A stretch of 32,000 nt of DNA from Pyrodictium delaneyi (GTDB lineage: Archaea; Thermoproteota; Thermoprotei_A; Sulfolobales; Pyrodictiaceae), in NCBI RefSeq assembly GCF_001412615.1, contig NZ_CP013011.1, positions 1,350,001 to 1,382,000 of the forward strand, in the 5' to 3' direction. Shown piece by piece: positions 52 to 9,901 of this stretch. Within the stretch, counting starts at the first letter, position 1. Every line of letters starts with the position of its first letter. The translations under genes were made by a program, and so were the position numbers. The notes below the pieces were generated by a model. It made no database searches and had not been told where the DNA came from. It was given only the letters and a program-made list of their open reading frames with translations.

Positions 52-1917
52 TTAATTTAGTAGTGTCTCCAACCAGTCAAAGGTAGCGTGGAGAATGTTC
101 TCGACGAACTCCTTGCTATTTGCATTATATCCGTTGTTGTGCTGGCCCGGTTCTATGATACCGGCATCCATTGGTTTCGCCCATTTCCCGCATTGAGGAT
201 CGTATTGATGAGGGATTATGTACTGCAGCGATGATACGGCTTCGACATCAGTTACGACTATTATTTTGCCCTTGCTGTGTTCGCCGACATGGAGTAGTCG
301 GGCTTTGGAAGGATCTCTCTTAAGAGCGTTAGGAATATCTATTGCTGCGGTTAGTGGTAGAATGACCCCCGCGTAGCCTTTCCGGCCAGGTAGAACGCTA
401 ATTATCACGTTGCTTATTCTTCTGCCAGCTTCAAGGTCTTTCGGTTCATTTCTCATGCATTTCAAAATTCTGTTGACTTTTATATTGCCTATAGCGTATC
501 CCCTGCACTTTCTATACTGCTTAGCTTTCTGCTTAACTTTTTGACATTGCTGCCGGGGTAGGCCGAGGATCCACGTATGGAACCCTACGCCTGGCATCTT
601 TACGGCTAGCCCGCTTGGCAGCTTGTTAGACGCTAAGTAGCTGTAGTAGTAGATCTTCCAGACAGCCTTAGTAGCTGCCTTACCGACGGCGCTTAATGCC
701 TCTAAGACGCCAACTACGGGTTTTTTCTTAGAGGGGTTACAGTAGTCTAATACAAGCTGTCGGCCTTCATGGTCATTCTTTCTAGGCGCGTACTCCCTTG
801 TTGCCAGCATGCAGGGGTGCTTTAGCTGCTCCACGTATCTCATCTCTTTGTGAGCATAGCTGAGCCGTGGCACGCTTGCAAGACTCTTGTATGGTTCGTG
901 CGATATACCCCATGCTTTTGCTGTAGCTTTTAGCACGAGGTTGATAAGCTGCTCTATAGTGCTCTTGTCCGGCTTGGTGGCGAGTTTCTCTGCTACTTCT
1001 GCTAGCTCTCCGTTAAAGTCCCCGTCACCGGTATCGAATCTGTAGCTGCCTCTGCGGGGAAGGAAGCGGCCGAATCCTCTTGAGACGGATTTCCCGAGGC
1101 CGAGGAGTACTGGCTCTGCGAGTGCTAGGCTTGCGAGGAGGAACTTCTCTGCTGGCTCGAGCTTGGCTCCAGGCCTTTCACGGAGCCTGAGACGGAATAC
1201 GACAGTTCCGGGCTTTGCCGGCTGCAGCTCAAATAGATACTGGGCCGTTTTGTTGACGAAATCCCGGCTTTCCGGCTTTGCCTCTACCCCTAGAGCGAGT
1301 AGGTGGAACCTTGGCACCGTAAATAGACAGATAAAGTCATCATCTCCGCACTGGCCGAGACGTAGACGTCTATAGGCTTTCTCCTCGAGTACTTGCATGA
1401 CATGACTTTGTCTAAGCCTAGGGCTCTGTTTCGATTTGGATCTATCTCCTCTCCTCTCTATCCTCTTCTTTGCCTCATCAAAAGCTTCTTGTACAGCGGC
1501 TACTATGGTTTTGTACTCTGCAAATGGCTCCGGCCTAGACTCGAGCCTGGCCTCTAGGATGAATGAAGCGGCTCGTGCGTTTTTCTCAACTGAGCCGAAG
1601 AGCTTCCTGAGGAGGTCGTCCTCTGTCGCTTTATAGCCGTTCTTTCCGAGATCCTCGTCACTGATATAGCTGGCTACTGCTGTGCGGGCGAGCCAGCGGA
1701 GCATGCCGCGGAGCTGCTCTGAGCCCTGCCATAGGAACTCGTAGTCGCTGCACTCTCCGTCGACACAGTGGAAGGTTTTGCCAGTGTAGCCGCCACCCCA
1801 GTAGGGCGTGACGGAGGTAAACACTATCTCGGCAAAGACGTCTCTAGCGCCTTCCAGGCTTCTTATAGTGTCTGTAATGTCTTCGAACTCTAGAGCATCC
1901 CTAGGCTCCACGGGCAT
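52..1917 (-). CDS. cmr1: Type III-B CRISPR RAMP subunit, Cmr1-like (two RAMP domains)
   Basis: 621-aa ORF immediately downstream of cmr4 and cmr5. It has a glycine-rich RAMP loop 'GLGKSVSRGFGRF' and an N-terminal 'FTSVTPYWGGGY' element. Its position fits the crenarchaeal order cmr4-cmr5-cmr1(-cmr6-cmr2-cmr3). It is longer than most Cmr1 proteins, so the subunit assignment is less certain than RAMP membership. Confidence 0.6.
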   Translation of the reverse strand: MPVEPRDALEFEDITDTIRSLEGARDVFAEIVFTSVTPYWGGGYTGKTFHCVDGECSDYEFLWQGSEQLRGMLRWLARTAVASYISDEDLGKNGYKATEDDLLRKLFGSVEKNARAASFILEARLESRPEPFAEYKTIVAAVQEAFDEAKKRIERRGDRSKSKQSPRLRQSHVMQVLEEKAYRRLRLGQCGDDDFICLFTVPRFHLLALGVEAKPESRDFVNKTAQYLFELQPAKPGTVVFRLRLRERPGAKLEPAEKFLLASLALAEPVLLGLGKSVSRGFGRFLPRRGSYRFDTGDGDFNGELAEVAEKLATKPDKSTIEQLINLVLKATAKAWGISHEPYKSLASVPRLSYAHKEMRYVEQLKHPCMLATREYAPRKNDHEGRQLVLDYCNPSKKKPVVGVLEALSAVGKAATKAVWKIYYYSYLASNKLPSGLAVKMPGVGFHTWILGLPRQQCQKVKQKAKQYRKCRGYAIGNIKVNRILKCMRNEPKDLEAGRRISNVIISVLPGRKGYAGVILPLTAAIDIPNALKRDPSKARLLHVGEHSKGKIIVVTDVEAVSSLQYIIPHQYDPQCGKWAKPMDAGIIEPGQHNNGYNANSKEFVENILHATFDWLETLLN

Positions 1918-1934
1918 CGTTTACCACCATCAGT

Positions 1935-2465
1935 CTAGCCTTTAGCGAAGAACGCTTCTGCTAGCTTCTTGACCTCGTTGAGGTATTCCACTAGTAGTCT
2001 TGCAGCATAGTGCTCTTTGCCTTGCTCTCTCAGCGATTTCAATGAAGCAGCTAGATTCTGGAGACTTGATAGATCGGTATTGGCTACTCCTGCCTCGGAT
2101 AGTGCGGCAGCGGCTAGTGCTAGTAGTGTAGTATAGCCGGCTGCTTCTTTCCCGCCTATCTCCTGGCACAGGTCGCTGCTCGGGTTTCCAGCTAGCTGCT
2201 CTCCCAGTTTCTTGTCGCGGTTTCTTAGCAGCTTGTAAAGGTCGGTATAGAGCTTGGAATTCTCGATCTTGGACATGTAGAAAGTGAGCGCTGGTATTAG
2301 TCCTACCGTGTACACCATGCTAGGTAAGTCCTTGGCTCTTCTTCGGATAGCGTCTCCCTTGTCTCGCATTTTGTTTTTGCAATTGGCTGTAGCCTTTTCG
2401 ACGAGATCCCGTAGTAGCAGTATGTGGTCTATAGCCATGGATATAGGATCTACTGTAGGTGTCAT
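1935..2465 (-). CDS. cmr5: Type III-B small subunit Cmr5 (Cas11 family)
   Basis: 176-aa predicted helical protein between cmr4 and cmr1. 'DLPSMVYTVGLIPALTFYMSK' resembles the conserved Cmr5 core helix. Size and position are typical. Confidence 0.7.
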   Translation of the reverse strand: MTPTVDPISMAIDHILLLRDLVEKATANCKNKMRDKGDAIRRRAKDLPSMVYTVGLIPALTFYMSKIENSKLYTDLYKLLRNRDKKLGEQLAGNPSSDLCQEIGGKEAAGYTTLLALAAAALSEAGVANTDLSSLQNLAASLKSLREQGKEHYAARLLVEYLNEVKKLAEAFFAKG

Positions 2466-2477
2466 GGTCGATCACCG

Positions 2478-3483
2478 CTAGGCTATCATTAGCTTCATCA
2501 ACCCCTTGCCTATGGTCTCCTTGCCACCTATACTCGCGTAAAGCACCCTGGTGTTAGTATCCTTGCTGGAAGCAGCGCCCAGGAGCTCCAAGAACATATC
2601 CTTCACGACAGAGGCGTCGGCGCTGATGCCGTTGCAATACTTGTTTCTCGGCCTGGTAAACGCGACTGCGCCTATGAAGAGGCTACCAGGCGGGAGATAT
2701 TCTTCAGTCCAGAGAGCCCGCTGTGTGACGGTCTTTTTCTCGCGGTCTATACTTATGCGTGTAACGCGGATTAGTCCTCTCTCTATCACGGTGGGGGCAA
2801 CATCGTCTCCAACGACTACTAGGTTGTCCACGAGAGGGCGTGCCTGGTAGAGCGGATTAAGGTTGTCTAGTTTGACCTCTTCGATGCTTTTGGATTGTGA
2901 TGTAGTTGCTATAGTAAACTTTTCGAGACCAAGTGTTATGCTTTCCCCCTTATCCCGGAGCCTAGGTGCTAGGACGGTATGCCCCCCAACTTCCCTAGAG
3001 TCGCCCAGGAGTACATCTATGACGTTATAGAGCTTCGTAAACATGTTGCTGATGCTAGATGCTTCGAGGATAGCCTTGGCGCGTGCTAGGAGCATGGGAG
3101 TCGTGACGTACACGTAGCCGTACTCTAGACTGGGAACCGGTATAGCCAGGGGGGAAGAAGTCTATAATCGATACTGCTGAGGCTCCTTCGTCGCCTTCTC
3201 CGGGCTCCGGGCCGAATATACAGCATACCGCTCTGCAATCACTACTGCTACATGCCACTCGGCCGCCACTTATGCAGTTCCTCCGCTGGCCCGCCTGGGT
3301 CTTTAATGCACCCTTAATGCTCGACGCGGGTATCAGGGGGTAGCCGTAGGGGTCGCGCTGCACCGGGAGATCAACCACGCCAGGTGCGCGGCCGGCACCA
3401 GGGTGGAGCGGTGTCAGAGCAGAGGCGAGAACCGGATCCATTCTGTCAAAGTAACCAATGGCCACTATGCACCAGCCCCGCAA
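2478..3483 (-). pseudogene. cmr4: cmr4 (Cas7-family backbone RAMP) split by a +1 frameshift at a C6/G6 homopolymer
   Basis: ORF 3055..3483 encodes a Cmr4 N-terminus ('TPLHPGAGRAPGVVDLPVQRDPYGYPLIPASSIKGALK'). ORF 2478..3113 encodes the C-terminus ('RVTRISIDREKKTV...LWTEEYLPPGSLF...IGGKETIGKGL'). Removing one G from the run at 3149-3154 joins them as '...SIIDFFPLAIPVPSLEYGYVYVTTPMLLARAK...', which fits the Cmr4 pattern. The start is TTG 3483 or ATG 3441. Confidence 0.8.
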
Positions 3484-3749: not shown

Positions 3750-5300
3750 CTACTCTGGCGAGAGTAGCCATGAGTTGAGCTGCTTTTTCATGTTCTCGTC
3801 GAGCGTGTATGTGACGGTGATCTCGTCTCCGCTCTTGCACACGTTCACTATGCTGTCTAGTAGCCCGCTGTGTGCGAAGAAGTTGCGCTTTATATCGCCC
3901 GCCATGGGCTTTCCCCGGCGCAGCTTCCTACTATCTTCCCTGCTCTGTCTTTGTTTTTGCTCCTCCACGGGGCCGCGTAGAGTGCTATATAGCTGGCATT
4001 GCTGAGAGAGCCTGGTGCTAGCTAGCTTTAGCTCTTTTAGGTCTCGTTCGAGCATCCTGGCGTTTAGTCTGAGCTCCTCGGCGAACTCGTGCCGGCCCTC
4101 ATAGACTTCCTCCTTGAACCATTCCAGCTCACGTAGCGGCACCATGCCGCCAGCTCGGCGGCTCATGAGGTGCCTAGCTAAGCGTATGAGTGACATCGTC
4201 TCTAGCAGGGCTAGGATGGTGTAGAGGCTTGTACTCCTTGTTGCAGCGAGCCGGCAGACTACTGCTCTGCCCTCATCCACGGCCGATTTTATCGTCCTCC
4301 ACGCCTCGGAGGCTATGAACTCCATTAACCCATTTATCGCTTCCTCGACCTCGCCTTGGCCTGGGGGCTCCTCGTCGAGGACTATGTCTGGCTGGTAGAG
4401 TACTAGGGGTGTGTTAAGCCGGAGTGCTGTAAACAGTTTTAGACCCTGCTTTAGGAATACCTTCAGGCTTGCTACCAGTCTCCCCCACTTCCTGCCCGTC
4501 TCCGCTTTGAGACCAGGTAGGACTCTGTCCAGATCTGTCTCGTCTATGCATGGGCATCTTTTGAGGCTTGAATAGCTGATAAACGACTCGGGCTTGAGCC
4601 CCGATATAGCAGACGACAGCAGCGGAAATGATGGGAATATTTTTGCTCCGACCTCCTGTAGGCTCAACGGGTAGGGGCCCTTATACCCCCTCCGTACCGG
4701 TGAAGCCGCCGAGACATAGAACTTAGCGTATTTGTCGCCGCCGAGCAGGAGTCTATCGAGTATACCGAGCTTGTACGCTACCACAAGTGTCCGGAAAGCC
4801 CTAGAGGCTGCTGAGACGTAGATATTGTAGCCCACCGATGTATCTAGGACTACGCGGTCGCAGCTATACTGTCCGAGGGCCTCCAGCATCGCCATGAAGA
4901 TGGAGAGTTCCAGGTCGCCGTACTCTGGGCCGTAGATCGACAATTCTAGGTTATTGCCGCCGTAGAAAACGCCATACGAGGGTAGGGCCTTCACCTCTAT
5001 CTTCTCCGGGCTTTCGAGGACCGAGCTGTACAGCTCTCCCAGCAGTGTTTCGAGCTTGCGCCAGTTACTAGCGAGGTCAACAGCCTCTGATGGGGTCTCG
5101 GCGATACTTGCTGCAAGCGCCTCTGGAGCTAAGAGTACCGTGTAGCACTCATCGCTAGAGCTGCTACATAGTACGTCGGCTGGCAGTACTGCGTCCCGTG
5201 TATACGCTTCTTCCCGCATAGACTCGCCCAGGATGCTATATGAGACCTTTTCATAGCTTCCAGGAACACCTATAACCTCGAATACACAGAGCCTCGGCAA
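3750..5300 (-). CDS. csx1: Csx1-family CRISPR ancillary protein (CARF N-terminal region, C-terminal HEPN RxxxxH motif)
   Basis: 516 aa. C-terminal 'KRNFFAHSGL' is an R-x4-H HEPN motif in the form seen in Csx1/Csm6. 'VLDTSVGYNIY' is a variant of the Csx1 DxTHG motif. It lies directly upstream of the cmr genes on the same strand. Confidence 0.7.
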   Translation of the reverse strand: MPRLCVFEVIGVPGSYEKVSYSILGESMREEAYTRDAVLPADVLCSSSSDECYTVLLAPEALAASIAETPSEAVDLASNWRKLETLLGELYSSVLESPEKIEVKALPSYGVFYGGNNLELSIYGPEYGDLELSIFMAMLEALGQYSCDRVVLDTSVGYNIYVSAASRAFRTLVVAYKLGILDRLLLGGDKYAKFYVSAASPVRRGYKGPYPLSLQEVGAKIFPSFPLLSSAISGLKPESFISYSSLKRCPCIDETDLDRVLPGLKAETGRKWGRLVASLKVFLKQGLKLFTALRLNTPLVLYQPDIVLDEEPPGQGEVEEAINGLMEFIASEAWRTIKSAVDEGRAVVCRLAATRSTSLYTILALLETMSLIRLARHLMSRRAGGMVPLRELEWFKEEVYEGRHEFAEELRLNARMLERDLKELKLASTRLSQQCQLYSTLRGPVEEQKQRQSREDSRKLRRGKPMAGDIKRNFFAHSGLLDSIVNVCKSGDEITVTYTLDENMKKQLNSWLLSPE

Positions 5301-5649: not shown

Positions 5650-5907
5650 GTGTACGGGAGAATGAGTGACACGGATGAGCCCTTGGTGGAGATAAGGGTC
5701 CCGAGAAGCATCGTGGACGATGTGCAGAGGAGTATCGCTACGCTCCTTGAGTCGAAGAGGAGGCTAACCCGTAAGGAGTATACACTCTTGCTGGAGATGG
5801 AGGGTTTTGACACTAGGCTTCTGGAGGGGCTCGACTCCGGCGAGGACGATCAACGCGTACTCATGGCTATGAGGGGGAGGGAGAAGAGGAGGGCCCAGCA
5901 TCCTTGA
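5650..5907 (+). CDS. Putative antitoxin (VapB-like) of the downstream PIN toxin
   Basis: Small (82-85 aa) charged ORF whose stop (TGA 5905-5907) overlaps the TTG start (5904) of the PIN gene. ATG at 5662 is a plausible alternative start. No specific DNA-binding fold was recognised by eye. Confidence 0.5.
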   Translation: MYGRMSDTDEPLVEIRVPRSIVDDVQRSIATLLESKRRLTRKEYTLLLEMEGFDTRLLEGLDSGEDDQRVLMAMRGREKRRAQHP

Positions 5908-6233
5908 CTATACTCGATACTAGCGTCGTTATAGACCGTGTCCGGGCTAGGCAGCAGATACCGGAGGACATTGTGGAGGTAACGGTGCTGGAGTATCCAC
6001 CCATACTGGCCTACAGGGAGTTTACAGGCAGCATAGTGCTTGTAGAGCGGCGTGACTGGCGTCTAGCCCTAGAGCTGCAGATAAAGCTACGCAGGATGGG
6101 TAAGCCTAAGGGCCTTGCCGACCTCCTTATAGCGGCTGTAGCTATAAACCGCGGGGAAGAACTTGTGGCAAGGGATAGAGACTATCTCGACATCGCCAGG
6201 GTATCCGACTTAAAGCTGCGCCTAATACCCTAA
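5904..6233 (+). CDS. vapC: PIN-domain toxin (VapC-like ribonuclease)
   Basis: 109 aa. It has the N-terminal 'ILDTSVVID' PIN signature plus downstream acidic residues ('LADLLIAAVA', 'ARDRDYLDI'). It is translationally coupled to the upstream small ORF. Confidence 0.75.
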   Translation: MTILDTSVVIDRVRARQQIPEDIVEVTVLEYPPILAYREFTGSIVLVERRDWRLALELQIKLRRMGKPKGLADLLIAAVAINRGEELVARDRDYLDIARVSDLKLRLIP

Positions 6234-6381: not shown

Positions 6382-7482
6382 TTAGCACGGTCTGGGCTCG
6401 TGTATGTGGCTTAGTGCTTTCCTTAGGCGTGGGTCGCTTCTGGCCTGGTTCTTGAGCAGGTTGTGTAGTTCTCCCTGGGTGCAGGCTTGCCGGGCCTCGG
6501 CTGCTGCCTGTAGGGTTATGCTGAGGTTGTGGAGGGCTATGCTCTGTGTGTCGTGTCTCATCTCCTGTAGTGTCTGGTGCCTGGTGCAGCCTGGGCACGT
6601 GCATAGAGGTTTCTGGCTGGGGTCTGCCTCTCTTAGGCTTATCCTGGCTGGCTTGGCTCCGTTGGGCTGGTAGTAGAGGCGTTTGGCGGCTGCTATGATG
6701 TAGGTCTTGGAGTCCATGCTGTCGGCGCCCGCGGCGTATAGTAGCGCTGTGTTCCGGGGGCTCGCGACTCCTAGGAGGTGGATCCACGTGCCCCATCCTA
6801 GGAGTCTTCTTGCCTGCTGGAGGCGCTGGGCTAGTAGCCACCACTTGGCGGAGTGCGGCACCAGCCCTCCAACAGCGTAGCCGTCGACGTCGCCCAGGCC
6901 CATGCCGGCGTGCTCGTGTAGCTCCCTCTCCAGCGTGGCGAGGAGCCTCTGTAGGGCCTCGGGGCTGTTGTACTGGAGGACTACAAGGAGCCTTATCCCG
7001 CTGCGGCGGCGGAGCTGGTATGCTAGGGCCGCGGCGCGCGCGGTGAGCCGGATCCTCTCCGCCACCGTCCCGGGGCAGCAGCCGGGGTCCACCTGGCTCC
7101 TAGGGGGCAGGGGGTAGTCGAGGGTGAAGGCTACGCTGGCGCCGAAGCGCTCCTGGCGCCGGAGAACCTCCTCCACCAGGTCCTCGCTCCAGCCGCTGGG
7201 TGCCCCACCGCCTCTACCGTCTTCCCTTCTGCGGCGGTGGAGCCCGGCGAGCCTGCGCTGCGGGGCCTCTAGGAAGAGGAAGGCGCCGCTATCAACCCAG
7301 GCGTAGAGGCTGCCGAGCGCTGAGACGCGGTGGCCGTCGCCGAGGAAGAACGCGTTGAACATGGCGTGGCGCCATCCCAGCCCGCGGGGCGGCGGCAGCC
7401 AGAACGGCGGCGTGTTCCCGCCCGCCCCGAGGTTGTGGACTGGGACAATCACCGGCGGCTCCGCGCCGGGGAGTAGGCTCAT
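6382..7482 (-). CDS. tRNA-guanine transglycosylase (TGT) superfamily protein, catalytic barrel only; divergent paralog (DpdA/TgtA5-like candidate)
   Basis: 366 aa. Motifs: 'WVDSGAFLF' (compare TGT DSGGFQ), 'AAGADSMDSKTY' (compare the G-x-D-x-FD nucleophile-Asp motif), and a Zn site 'CTCPGC' followed about 20 residues later by 'LHNL'. It has no C-terminal PUA or C1/C2 domains of archaeosine TGT. A GGAGGA sits about 8 nt upstream of the ATG. Confidence 0.7.
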   Translation of the reverse strand: MSLLPGAEPPVIVPVHNLGAGGNTPPFWLPPPRGLGWRHAMFNAFFLGDGHRVSALGSLYAWVDSGAFLFLEAPQRRLAGLHRRRREDGRGGGAPSGWSEDLVEEVLRRQERFGASVAFTLDYPLPPRSQVDPGCCPGTVAERIRLTARAAALAYQLRRRSGIRLLVVLQYNSPEALQRLLATLERELHEHAGMGLGDVDGYAVGGLVPHSAKWWLLAQRLQQARRLLGWGTWIHLLGVASPRNTALLYAAGADSMDSKTYIIAAAKRLYYQPNGAKPARISLREADPSQKPLCTCPGCTRHQTLQEMRHDTQSIALHNLSITLQAAAEARQACTQGELHNLLKNQARSDPRLRKALSHIHEPRPC

Positions 7483-7623
7483 AACCCCGTTCCTCCCCGG
7501 AGCCGGGGCTTACGCGCCCAGCTGCCATCATAAGGCTTCGGGCATCTATACCCCGGTGGACGGCGGCCCCCATGTAGGCCATCGTGCACTGCTCCTGGGT
7601 GGTGGCCTGGCGCCGGAGTATCC

Positions 7624-8625
7624 TTGTTTATTTGTGCCCAATACTCTTCTGTCTACCCCTCATGGGTTCCTCCGGCGGAGGTGCTAGGGGTTCTGTCCGA
7701 CGAGGCCCTCTATATCGGCGAGCTGAGGCTACGGGTCACGCCGCTACGGGATACTGTGCTCCCACCAGTGAGCAGTAAGCTCGTAAAGAGCCTCCTCCTG
7801 GCCTCGCCCGTCCCGGGGTGGATGCGTGAGCTAGTGGAGGCTAGGCGGGGCTACAAGCCGCTCTTCGTCTCGATGCTGTACCGCGGCCGCCGAGCCCTCT
7901 ACTCAGCCACCACCCAGGCCGGGAGGCCCCTCGTGGCCCGCGCTGGCCAGCCTCTAGAGGCGCGGGTAGCCTTCGTGGCCCACGACGCCTCAGCTGCCTG
8001 GGAGCTAGCAGCCGTCCTCGGAGGCCGCCGCGAGACCCCCTACGGCCCGGTCGAGACCGTGGTCGAGGAGGCAAGGATCCAGACACCAGAACAGCTACGG
8101 CTCCCCAGCCCCGCGGACGGGCCCACCGGCGTGCTACGCGTAGAGGCGCGGACACCCGTCGTGCTCACCTCCAAGGTCCTCGTCGCCACGGAGCCGCCCC
8201 CGGGCGCCCGGATCCCCAGGCTCCACCGGCTCCTCCCATCACCAGGGCTAGTAGCCGCCTACGCCTTCAGGCTCTGGAACCGGGCCCTCGGCCCCCGCTA
8301 CGCAGTCTACTGGCGCGACGCATGGAACCACGACGCAGCTATGGTCGCCCGGGCAGCCGAGGTATACATGGCCGAGATAGACTACCAGCTACACCCCGAG
8401 ACAGTAGTAATAGGCCGCGGAGCCTCCGGCAGGCTACGCCTAGCACGGGGCTGGCGAGGCTGGATAACCTACCGCGTCGCAGGCCCCAGGCTCGCCCGGC
8501 TACTCGACAGACTACTAGCACTCACAAACACCCTCGGACTCGGCAGAAGCCGAGGCATAGGACTAGGAGACACACACGCACAATGGATACAACCCAAAAA
8601 CAACAAAACAAAACCAAACCAGTAA
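7624..8625 (+). CDS. cas6: Cas6 CRISPR repeat endoribonuclease
   Basis: C-terminal glycine-rich loop 'LGLGRSRGIGLGD' is typical of Cas6. The gene lies immediately upstream of, and co-oriented with, the leader and array. The true start may be internal, for example GTG near 7679; the N-terminal approximately 20 residues of the track ORF are doubtful. Confidence 0.8.
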   Translation: MFICAQYSSVYPSWVPPAEVLGVLSDEALYIGELRLRVTPLRDTVLPPVSSKLVKSLLLASPVPGWMRELVEARRGYKPLFVSMLYRGRRALYSATTQAGRPLVARAGQPLEARVAFVAHDASAAWELAAVLGGRRETPYGPVETVVEEARIQTPEQLRLPSPADGPTGVLRVEARTPVVLTSKVLVATEPPPGARIPRLHRLLPSPGLVAAYAFRLWNRALGPRYAVYWRDAWNHDAAMVARAAEVYMAEIDYQLHPETVVIGRGASGRLRLARGWRGWITYRVAGPRLARLLDRLLALTNTLGLGRSRGIGLGDTHAQWIQPKNNKTKPNQ

Positions 8626-8984: not shown

Positions 8985-9901
8985 GAATCATAACAAATAG
9001 AACTGAAAGCCAAATCCGTGAGTCTTATCTCAACCTTCATCTTAGCCATGGCATCACGAATCATAACAAATAGAACTGAAAGTCTCGTATGTAGTCATCA
9101 TTTTCCTTCATTGGTATCGGATCAGAGAATCATAACAAATAGAACTGAAAGTACTATCACCCGCTCGGGTTAGCCCCGTGTATCAATATATATGGAATCA
9201 TAACAAATAGAACTGAAAGTCTACGTAGCCCATCTCGACGGCAGAGGCTAGAGCCCTCGCTATGAATCATAACAAATAGAACTGAAAGAGTCATACGACG
9301 ACTACGCACGCTTCCGAGACGCCGTTGACGCTGCAAGAATCATAACAAATAGAACTGAAAGCACCGGGTCCTAGCTCCAGGCATCGCTGGTAGTTGAGCC
9401 AGAATCATAACAAATAGAACTGAAAGACTCTGAAAGGCATGTTTTTACACCCCCTCCATGCGGAAGCCTAGAGAATCATAACAAATAGAACTGAAAGTTG
9501 GAATCCTTACAGCCATACATAAAATCACACCGCTAGAATCATAACAAATAGAACTGAAAGCTCACAGCCTTCCTCGCTGCCTCCGCCTCTCCACCGAGCT
9601 TCTCGAATCATAACAAATAGAACTGAAAGGTCTACAGCAAAGATACTCCAGCTAGACAACAACGGAGAGAATCATAACAAATAGAACTGAAAGGCGGTAC
9701 TTGGGGGTTGGCACCACGACCCGGTACCAGAGGCCCCGAATCATAACAAATAGAACTGAAAGACTCCGTTGAAGCGCTTCCTCACCCACTCCCTAAGACT
9801 CGACGTGAATCATAACAAATAGAATTGAAAACTAGGCTTGTCCTCTTGGATGGACTGAGTAAGTGGACTTGAAAAGAATCATAAGCAAAATGGGGCTGAA
9901 G
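8985..9901 (+). CRISPR. CRISPR array, 25-bp repeat GAATCATAACAAATAGAACTGAAAG; 12 identical repeats + 2 degenerate terminal repeats; 13 spacers of 38-48 bp
   Basis: Perfect repeats start at 8985, 9058, 9127, 9195, 9264, 9337, 9402, 9473, 9536, 9605, 9669 and 9738. Repeat 13 at 9807 has 2 mismatches (GAATCATAACAAATAGAATTGAAAA). Repeat 14 at 9876-9901 is strongly degenerate (GAATCATAAGCAAAATGGGGCTGAAG). The repeat ends in CTGAAAG, like crenarchaeal repeats that give an 8-nt 5' crRNA handle. Confidence 0.97.

Follow-up and report, generated by a model that had tools for sequence, protein, structure and literature searches.

A stand-alone TGT-fold protein in a CRISPR-Cas region of Pyrodictium delaneyi and its association with NurA and HerA

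Genes at the locus

The window analyzed here is a stretch of 32,000 nucleotides from the archaeon Pyrodictium delaneyi (NZ_CP013011.1, positions 1,350,001 to 1,382,000), and window coordinates count from its first letter. On the reverse strand, an open reading frame at 6382..7482 with an ATG start encodes P0001, a stand-alone protein of 366 amino acids (aa) that possesses the fold of the tRNA-guanine transglycosylases (TGTs) but only their catalytic TIM barrel and Zn subdomain. The P0001 family is a CRISPR-linked accessory gene family, given its adjacency to CRISPR-Cas genes in differing arrangements and at low sequence identity.

The gene is divergent from cas6 (7624..8625, forward strand), which was recognized by the Pfam models Cas6_N (8e-14) and CRISPR_Cas6 (7e-8). 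The gene coordinates leave 141 bp between the two (7483..7623), and this region presumably contains both promoters. Beyond cas6 is a CRISPR array with 13 copies of the repeat GAATCATAACAAATAGAACTGAAAG (8985..9832, forward strand, from repeat detection), and two further arrays with the identical repeat are found 19-24 kb upstream of the window. On the other side, the P0001 gene is convergent with a vapBC-like pair (5650..6233, forward strand) encoding proteins of 85 aa and 109 aa, the latter a PIN protein (PIN domain, 3e-7). The small upstream open reading frame of this pair had no match in a Pfam scan. Thus, the Pfam-annotated neighbors and the 141-bp gap agree with the initial annotation, which had been made from the sequence alone and placed the gene between vapBC and cas6, divergent from the latter.

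The remaining cas genes of the window are csx1, with CARF and HEPN domains (3750..5300, reverse strand; Csx1_HEPN 6e-10, Csx1_CARF 7.5e-6), and part of a type III-B Cmr module consisting of cmr1, cmr5 and cmr4, the last in two frames (52..3483, reverse strand; RAMP and Cmr5 Pfam matches). The genes cmr3 and cas10 are located immediately upstream of the window. Together, the cas genes of the window form the tail of a CRISPR-Cas supercluster of about 34 kb, whose order inside the window is cmr1-cmr5-cmr4, csx1, vapBC, the P0001 gene, cas6 and the array. Upstream of the window (G000:C1:1326001-1346000, locus L034), the order is csx1, HerA1 (767 aa), a NurA1-like gene (533 aa), the CARF gene Cas_APE2256, a gene for a 568-aa protein and a small NE0113-like CARF gene (185 aa), followed by an array, csa1-cas1-cas4, an array, cmr3 and cas10. 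A homolog of the 568-aa protein also adjoins the TGT-like gene in another locus, L006.

The catalytic domain and its relatives

P0001 is a member of the TGT superfamily by curated score cut-offs, by fold and by its catalytic and Zn residues. It scores 64.3 bits with the Pfam TGT model (PF01702, cut-off 26.3) and 54.1 bits with TIGR00449 tgt_general (cut-off 47.6). An AlphaFold2 model, which the initial annotation had proposed as a check, was built from 23 family sequences. It has a predicted local distance difference test score (pLDDT) of 90.4, and disorder is limited to the loop of residues 80-93 (pLDDT <50). The model depicts a TGT catalytic barrel with its Zn subdomain and superposes on residues 10-356 of the archaeosine TGT (ArcTGT) of Pyrococcus horikoshii (1iq8) with a Z of 31.4 and a root-mean-square deviation of 2.6 Å over 307 residues. 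The fits to ArcTGT, QTRT1 and the TGT of Zymomonas mobilis are roughly equal (Z 29.6-31.4 over about 305-324 residues). The end of P0001 corresponds to residue 356 of the 582 in 1iq8, and the C1/C2/C3-PUA domains are absent. Therefore, it comprises a complete catalytic barrel and Zn subdomain and nothing more. The early remark that a protein of only 366 aa lacks the C1/C2/PUA tRNA-binding domains is borne out by both the open reading frame and the superposition. A search for longer fused forms gave none, which is weak evidence.

The residues of the active site are well conserved, and all of the following motifs are encoded on the reverse strand. The translation contains DSGAF (D64-F68, 7279..7293), in which D64 is the equivalent of ArcTGT Asp95; no variation at D64, S65 and G66 occurs among 24 family members, and an alignment of 126 TGT relatives shows the column to be conserved. 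In the alignment, D122 of TLDY (7114..7125) takes the position of the base-recognizing Asp of ArcTGT (ILDIP) and is invariant in the family. Residue-by-residue alignment to 1iq8 equates the pocket loop GGLVP (G205-P209, 6856..6870) with GGVVP of P. horikoshii ArcTGT, and G205, L207, V208 and P209 are invariant across the family. The same structure aligns GADSMDS (residues 252-258, 6709..6729) such that D254 is at the position of the nucleophile Asp, D249 in ArcTGT. This residue is kept in 22 of 23 aligned family members, and D257 is invariant. Directly after GADSMDS comes DSKTYIIAAAKRLYY, the most conserved stretch of the family, from which the pattern I[AS]AAKRL[YW]Y was selected as most conserved. 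The aligned Zn site (6529..6603) comprises C294, C296 and C299 of CTCPGC (residues 294-299, 6586-6603) and H318 (6529-6531). In the alignment with 126 relatives, the residues of P0001 that fall in canonical ArcTGT columns are D64, S65, G66, D122, Q170, G205, G206, L207, V208, D254, D257, S258, C294, C296, C299 and H318. The TGT hallmarks listed in the initial annotation, DSGAF, ADSMDS and CxCxxC...H, are all among these columns and at the places given for them. The same annotation had described a non-canonical N-terminal third rich in Pro, Gly and Arg. This description holds for the Arg/Gly-rich loop GLHRRRREDGRGGGA (7201..7245, reverse strand), which is disordered in the model at residues 80-93 and variable but basic in the family alignment. 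However, the rest of the N-terminal third is mostly a conserved and confidently folded barrel that carries the family motif PVHNLGAGGNTPPxW.

The complete 2.02-Mb genome of P. delaneyi contains three TGT-fold genes, P0031, P0001 and P0030. P0031 (522 aa, at 58 kb) scores 574.5 bits with the TIGR00432 equivalog model (cut-off 350) and is a complete TgtA, located 1.3 Mb from the P0001 gene. P0001 shares 29% identity with the catalytic part of P0031. With TIGR00432 it scores 76.6 bits and with the ArcS model NF040592 49.9 bits, the latter over residues 220-359 only (cut-off 440), and neither cut-off is reached. Nearly all of 241 genomes of the class have exactly one TGT match, a canonical protein of about 500-560 aa. 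By this predicted gene content, P0001 is not the housekeeping archaeosine TGT. The possibility that it is part of a split ArcTGT is ruled out because P0031 is already a complete TgtA. The initial annotation had noted that a sole TGT clustering with split tgtA catalytic subunits would be the housekeeping enzyme; instead, a separate full-length tgtA is present.

The genome also encodes QueC, two PTPS/QueD proteins and one QueF-like protein. In the crenarchaeal archaeosine pathway, such genes imply the synthesis of preQ0. The gene content of P. delaneyi is consistent with preQ0 synthesis, so that preQ0 would be made and archaeosine would be accounted for without P0001.

Relatives of P0001 were sought by word-indexed and exhaustive searches of sequence collections. 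About 26 are close (45-81% identity, 330-376 aa), and two outliers, P0032 and P0033, share 38-42% identity. Beyond these there is a gap, followed by other short TGT-like clades and canonical ArcTGT. In a tree of 126 rows, the P0001 family, P0032 and P0033 form one clade (support 99), and the 71-row clade of canonical ArcTGTs, which includes P0031 (support 99), excludes them. The phylogenetic and profile comparison suggested at the outset thus separates the family from ArcTGT and places it below the DpdA models, and the description of P0001 as a stand-alone, divergent TGT paralog stands, with scores below the TgtA, ArcS and DpdA equivalog cut-offs and a clade of its own. Among ten sampled short TGT paralogs, none reached the cut-off of an NCBIfam equivalog model. 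For P0035 and P0036, from the wider short-TGT clades, the available contigs are too short to reveal neighboring genes. When compared with structures, the family profile scored 76 bits with ArcTGT 1iq8, 36.6 bits with DpdA 7ui4 (over 89 residues) and 32.6 bits with QTRT1. The corresponding hhalign probabilities were 99.5% for P0031, 97.9% for P0030 (E 3e-13) and 0.95% for the DpdA of phage 9g, whose sequence was taken via the accession given in PMC6884629.

Within the sequence collections that were searched, nearly all members found come from Pyrodictiaceae, where the distribution is patchy. It is present in seven of 29 Pyrodictiaceae genomes (G000, G067, G141, G034, G164, G269 and G304) and a sample of about 279 other genomes of the class contained no member, a distribution that does not match the near-universal, single-copy housekeeping distribution of ArcTGT. 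The carriers belong to four genera, all of which include non-carriers too, and some same-genus genomes have no P0001-type gene although they are 99% complete. The ratio of nonsynonymous to synonymous substitution rates (dN/dS) is 0.20-0.21 for the closest pairs and 0.21 for P0001 and its same-genus ortholog, and the family alignment has about 40 invariant columns. These values indicate that the family is under purifying selection, and the dN/dS of 0.2 and the invariant columns rule out a pseudogene or a neutral paralog. All members are strongly basic, with isoelectric points of 9.6-10.7. An origin from a provirus or a viral DpdA-like gene is unsupported, since no homologs were found when P0001 was compared by tblastn with 50,697 records of phages and archaeal viruses, when PHROGs were searched or when IMG/VR was scanned with the family alignment.

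Linkage to CRISPR-Cas genes, NurA and HerA

Of 15 distinct loci for which 4 kb of context or more is available, 10 have cas genes, an array or NurA and HerA no farther than 10 kb from the TGT-like gene. This is our own count, and it overstates independence because the compared genomes are relatives. The gene arrangements vary between loci and are therefore not what inherited synteny alone predicts. In G067, of the same genus as P. delaneyi, an array and cas6 lie 5-8 kb from the TGT-like gene. In Pyrolobus fumarii, 640 bp separate it from the start of an array of 80 repeats, and NurA/HerA are at 4-8 kb. In L008 and L032, the TGT-like gene is the first gene of a Cmr operon and has the same orientation. 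It is adjacent to an NE0113-type CARF gene, followed by NurA and HerA, in L004, and is surrounded by Cas_APE2256, Csx1, NurA, HerA and CRISPR repeats in L006. Even in L023, an outlier of 35-38% identity from another Thermoprotei lineage, cas4, cas6, NurA, HerA, two APE2256 genes, NE0113 and a RAMP gene surround the TGT-like gene. The accessory or defence placement proposed in the initial annotation is thus supported by a CRISPR linkage that recurs across the family and by its patchy distribution, and a defence-accessory role for P0001 is strongly supported.

Several other genes occur in these loci. Two PF01637 'archaeal ATPase' genes, which are nSTAND1-like, flank the TGT-like gene and the 80-repeat array of P. 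fumarii (L019:6147-7322(-) and L019:18108-19298(-)). A conserved protein of about 155 aa is encoded between the TGT-like gene and the first Cmr RAMP gene at L008:11705-12175(+) and L032:2185-2652(+); it is 67% identical between the two loci and had no match in a Pfam scan. Nothing recognizable was found beside the TGT-like gene on the 6-9 kb contigs of L021 and L022. On the 5.1 kb contig of L027, the sole recognizable neighbor is an adjacent AAA_15/AAA_21 ATPase. In four loci (L008:8230-9678(-), L027:1651-3105(-), L017:6512-7939(-) and, split, L023:11092-12112(+)), such ATPases, of the OLD/ABC type, are adjacent or close to the TGT-like gene and may be an additional associated component or merely another defence-island gene.

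The constant partners of the TGT-like genes are NurA and HerA. Ahead of the HerA-like ATPase there is in every case a protein of about 530 aa. It has no Pfam match, and its model has a pLDDT of 70, but all of Foldseek ranks 1-10 for this model are NurA structures, with a best E-value of 1.6e-5. On this predicted structure, the partner of the HerA-like ATPase is NurA-like. In three loci the NurA-HerA pair directly adjoins the TGT gene or is one gene off. The order is TGT, NurA and HerA in L033/L041, with a 26-bp gap after the TGT gene, and NurA, HerA and TGT in L044, with a 15-bp gap before the TGT gene. In L004 only the small CARF gene separates the TGT-like gene from the pair. One of the members immediately followed by NurA-HerA, P0012, has no Cys triad. 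A radical-SAM gene (L033:4319-5401(+), 360 aa) lies just upstream of the trio in L033. Its 73%-identical homolog in P. delaneyi is distant (about 1,858,654-1,859,706), which suggests that this gene is probably unrelated to the trio.

The TGT-like and NurA-like genes also tend to occur in the same genomes. A NurA-like gene is present in seven of the 29 genomes (G000, G067, G141, G034, G164, G304 and G305), and its presence or absence is concordant with that of the TGT-like gene in 27; the two that disagree have completeness values of 67% and 77%. When the comparison is restricted to the 12 genomes of 90% completeness or more, both genes occur in the same five. In G164 both are present, on different contigs. 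Agreement with Cas10 (PF22335) is weaker, 22 of 29 genomes, with a model that is insensitive on these divergent Cas10s. The NE0113 Pfam model matched none of the 29 genomes, though the open reading frame of P. delaneyi itself scores weakly in hmmscan. A complex prediction for NurA1 and P0001 gave a score of 0.00, which was counted neither for nor against binding.

The third TGT-fold protein of P. delaneyi provides a replicate of this arrangement. P0030 (331 aa) is encoded at 290 kb (G000:C1:289771-290763(-), equal to L036:8768-9763(-)) and contains the motifs VDSGGY, DTADTS and CNCPAC...H. It shares about 25% identity with P0001 and is more divergent from TgtA than P0001 is. Divergently, 45 bp from its gene, are a 524-aa NurA2 (Pfam NurA, 1e-6) and then a 671-aa HerA2 (L036:9808-13394(+)), and the three genes together occupy G000:C1:289771-294394. 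Their setting is a second CRISPR locus, of type I, with cas6 and genes for the cas3 HD and helicase parts. Homologs of P0030 are present in four of the 29 genomes, and the arrangement TGT3-NurA2-HerA2 is kept in all four. NurA1 and NurA2 are barely alignable (E 0.003), and HerA1 and HerA2 share only short segments. Because P0001 and P0030, the two NurAs and the two HerAs are all deeply diverged, they constitute two anciently separated versions of the trio, both in CRISPR loci. Taken from gene order and divergence, this replicate is regarded as the strongest single argument that the association of TGT, NurA and HerA is functional.

Proposed function and alternative explanations

P0001 can be compared with three kinds of known systems. 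It resembles ArcTGT/TgtA (1IQ8, TIGR00432), its best match by sequence according to the family profile and hhalign comparisons, in the TIM barrel and Zn subdomain and in all catalytic, pocket and Zn residues. In contrast to that enzyme, it lacks C1/C2/C3-PUA, falls below the equivalog cut-off, forms a separate clade and is patchy and accessory. The family also possesses its own motifs, PVHNLGAGGNTPPxW in the N-terminal part and DSKTYIIAAAKRLYY after the nucleophile, and is linked to CRISPR and NurA-HerA genes, whereas the true TgtA, P0031, is encoded elsewhere.

The DpdA proteins (7UI4; phage 9g) are likewise lone TGT catalytic domains without PUA in a defence context, and both they and P0001 are predicted to use the preQ0 pool of the host. 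DpdA acts on DNA only with a separate ATPase, DpdB, with which no stable complex is formed (PMC10164549). In this respect HerA may be to P0001 what DpdB is to DpdA, since both plausibly need a separate DNA-dependent ATPase. Nevertheless, the assignment of P0001 to the TgtA5/DpdA type in the initial annotation did not hold. Its scores with DpdA models are only 17-19 bits (NF041059, 17.1 bits with a cut-off of 200; PADLOC DpdA PDLC02807, 18.6 bits), hhalign with the phage 9g DpdA gave a probability of 0.95% and no DpdB was found. PADLOC PDLC02808 had no match in the P. delaneyi genome. The DpdB model NF041060 also had no match in this 99.98% complete genome, as the observation that no dpdB-like partner is visible had anticipated, although this model matched no control genome either. 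Neighbors of the dpdC-K type were not seen among the annotated genes flanking the TGT-like gene, and tblastn of TgtA against phages returned bacterial-type tgt fragments only and no DpdA.

A parallel in gene pairing is provided by the recently proposed BREX-related capture (BRC) systems, which are centered on HerA/FtsK and include GNAT and TGT proteins (NAR 2026, PMC12839542). In these systems a TGT homolog beside a HerA/FtsK translocase is proposed to modify DNA without DpdB or DpdC, a pairing that resembles that of P0001 (PMC12839542). In contrast, the partner here is the NurA nuclease and the setting is CRISPR-Cas, and in PMC12839542 there is no mention of NurA or of TGT being linked to CRISPR. 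PglZ (PF08665) had no match in the P. delaneyi genome but matched in three control genomes. GNAT, BrxC-like and DUF4007 neighbors were not seen among the annotated flanking genes, with no model search for BrxC-like or DUF4007 proteins. As for NurA and HerA themselves, Shah et al. (2018, PMC6546367, clusters 57/58) list them as having co-evolved with crenarchaeal type III systems, and the genes accompanying the P0001 family are of the kind described there, with Csx1 and CARF genes around them in crenarchaeal type III loci. No TGT-fold protein appears in the main text of either of two published catalogues of genes linked to CRISPR (PMC6546367; preprint 10.1101/270033). Relative to the main text of PMC6546367, what is added is the three-way association of TGT, NurA and HerA. 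In the searchable literature, subscription journals and supplements excluded, no paper was found to link NurA, HerA and CRISPR with transglycosylase, archaeosine, queuine or 7-deazaguanine; absence from an incomplete literature is not proof of novelty.

Based on the current evidence, the tentatively preferred explanation, held with somewhat less than even confidence, is that P0001 is an accessory base-exchange enzyme, a CRISPR-resident TGT with the catalytic domain only, that works with the CRISPR-linked NurA-HerA pair, most likely on DNA. In this scheme P0001 would exchange guanine for a 7-deazaguanine by means of the nucleophile Asp254, and the donor base would most likely be preQ0 from the archaeosine pathway. 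The substrate would be DNA rather than tRNA, because the constant partners are proteins that process DNA ends or translocate DNA and because the domains by which ArcTGT holds tRNA are absent; given the linkage with the NurA-HerA genes, DNA is a plausible substrate and the most plausible one. The ATP-driven HerA translocase would open or present the DNA, the role taken by DpdB for DpdA. The resulting mark might shield host DNA from NurA-HerA and the type III DNases, or might mark or process invader DNA. Alternatively, a mark might be removed from modified viral DNA. The prediction resembles the original one for DpdA, which was made from a kept preQ0 pocket, the lack of PUA and clustering with DNA-metabolism genes (PMC5699537).

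A number of observations, besides the kinship of the compared genomes, weigh against this proposal. In one subclade (L009, L010 and L020) the TGT-like gene is beside a ribosomal-protein operon, a SPOUT RNA methyltransferase and isoleucyl-tRNA synthetase (IleRS), and no cas gene is found within 10 kb. The sequence of the family is much closer to the tRNA-acting ArcTGT than to any DpdA. In P. delaneyi itself, NurA1 and HerA1, encoded at G000:C1:1327890-1331939, are separated from the P0001 gene by about 25 kb. Moreover, NurA-HerA resects DNA ends, and we know of no need for a base mark in this process. The Cys triad is missing in P0005, P0012 and P0013, though H318 is still invariant, and one member among P0005, P0012, P0013 and P0025 has Thr at the position of the nucleophile Asp. 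Therefore, catalysis is possibly not universal in the family.

More speculatively, TGT, NurA and HerA may constitute a previously undescribed three-gene module of archaeal CRISPR-Cas systems, in at least two anciently diverged versions, that writes or erases 7-deazaguanine in DNA. This is possible, but it is a weaker proposition than the role suggested for P0001. To our knowledge, 7-deazaguanine in DNA is so far restricted to bacterial Dpd islands and phages, where it serves restriction-modification or anti-restriction. If the proposition is true, this would be the first DNA deazaguanine system of cellular archaea, extending that chemistry to archaeal cells, and the first case of a base-exchange enzyme with a functional link to CRISPR immunity. 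It would also give the long-unexplained NurA-HerA pairs of type III loci a testable role and suggest that CRISPR immunity has an added layer that deals with self and non-self or with DNA processing.

The main competing explanation, which seems rather unlikely, is that P0001 is a defence-linked transglycosylase of RNA. It would then exchange guanine in host or viral tRNA, in CRISPR RNA (crRNA) or its 8-nt repeat-derived handle, or in viral mRNA, as a supporting activity in the RNA-sensing immunity of type III CRISPR systems. The closest proteins by sequence and structure, ArcTGT and QTRT1, act on tRNA; type III systems and the Csx1/CARF partners act on RNA; the P0001 gene is divergently paired with cas6, which encodes the crRNA-processing enzyme; and one subclade is placed among translation genes. 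However, P0001 is without the C-terminal domains by which ArcTGT holds tRNA, the distribution of the family tracks NurA (27/29) better than Cas10 (22/29), and the P0030 replicate is in a type I, DNA-targeting locus with cas3. A further alternative retains DNA as the substrate but dispenses with exchange. Here P0001 would remove or recognize guanine or viral 7-deazaguanine in DNA, either to create abasic or nicked entry sites for NurA-HerA or to detect modified invader DNA. The NurA-HerA linkage counts in its favor as well, and some members without the Zn site or the nucleophile are otherwise conserved, a hint that complete transglycosylation may be dispensable in some cases. DNA glycosylases with an antiviral role that take advantage of modified bases in phages have also been reported (bioRxiv 10.1101/2025.10.29.685425). 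Nevertheless, we consider it improbable, because 22 of 23 members retain everything needed for exchange, both Asp residues as well as the pocket, and the host has genes for preQ0 synthesis. In addition, we know of no TGT-fold enzyme that is a hydrolytic glycosylase.

It is more improbable still that P0001 is a lineage-specific housekeeping modifier of tRNA or rRNA, for instance at a second archaeosine-type site, and that its CRISPR position is coincidental hitch-hiking in a variable region. The proximity to ArcTGT, the ribosomal-protein genes, SPOUT methyltransferase and IleRS of L009, L010 and L020, and the purifying selection would all suit such an enzyme. In contrast, its presence in only 7/29 genomes, its absence from 99%-complete genomes of the same genus and from the rest of the class sample, and the linkage of 10/15 loci to CRISPR or NurA-HerA genes in differing arrangements would not. 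Moreover, NurA accompanies the TGT-like gene even in the absence of linkage between them, as in G164, and the association is replicated by P0030.

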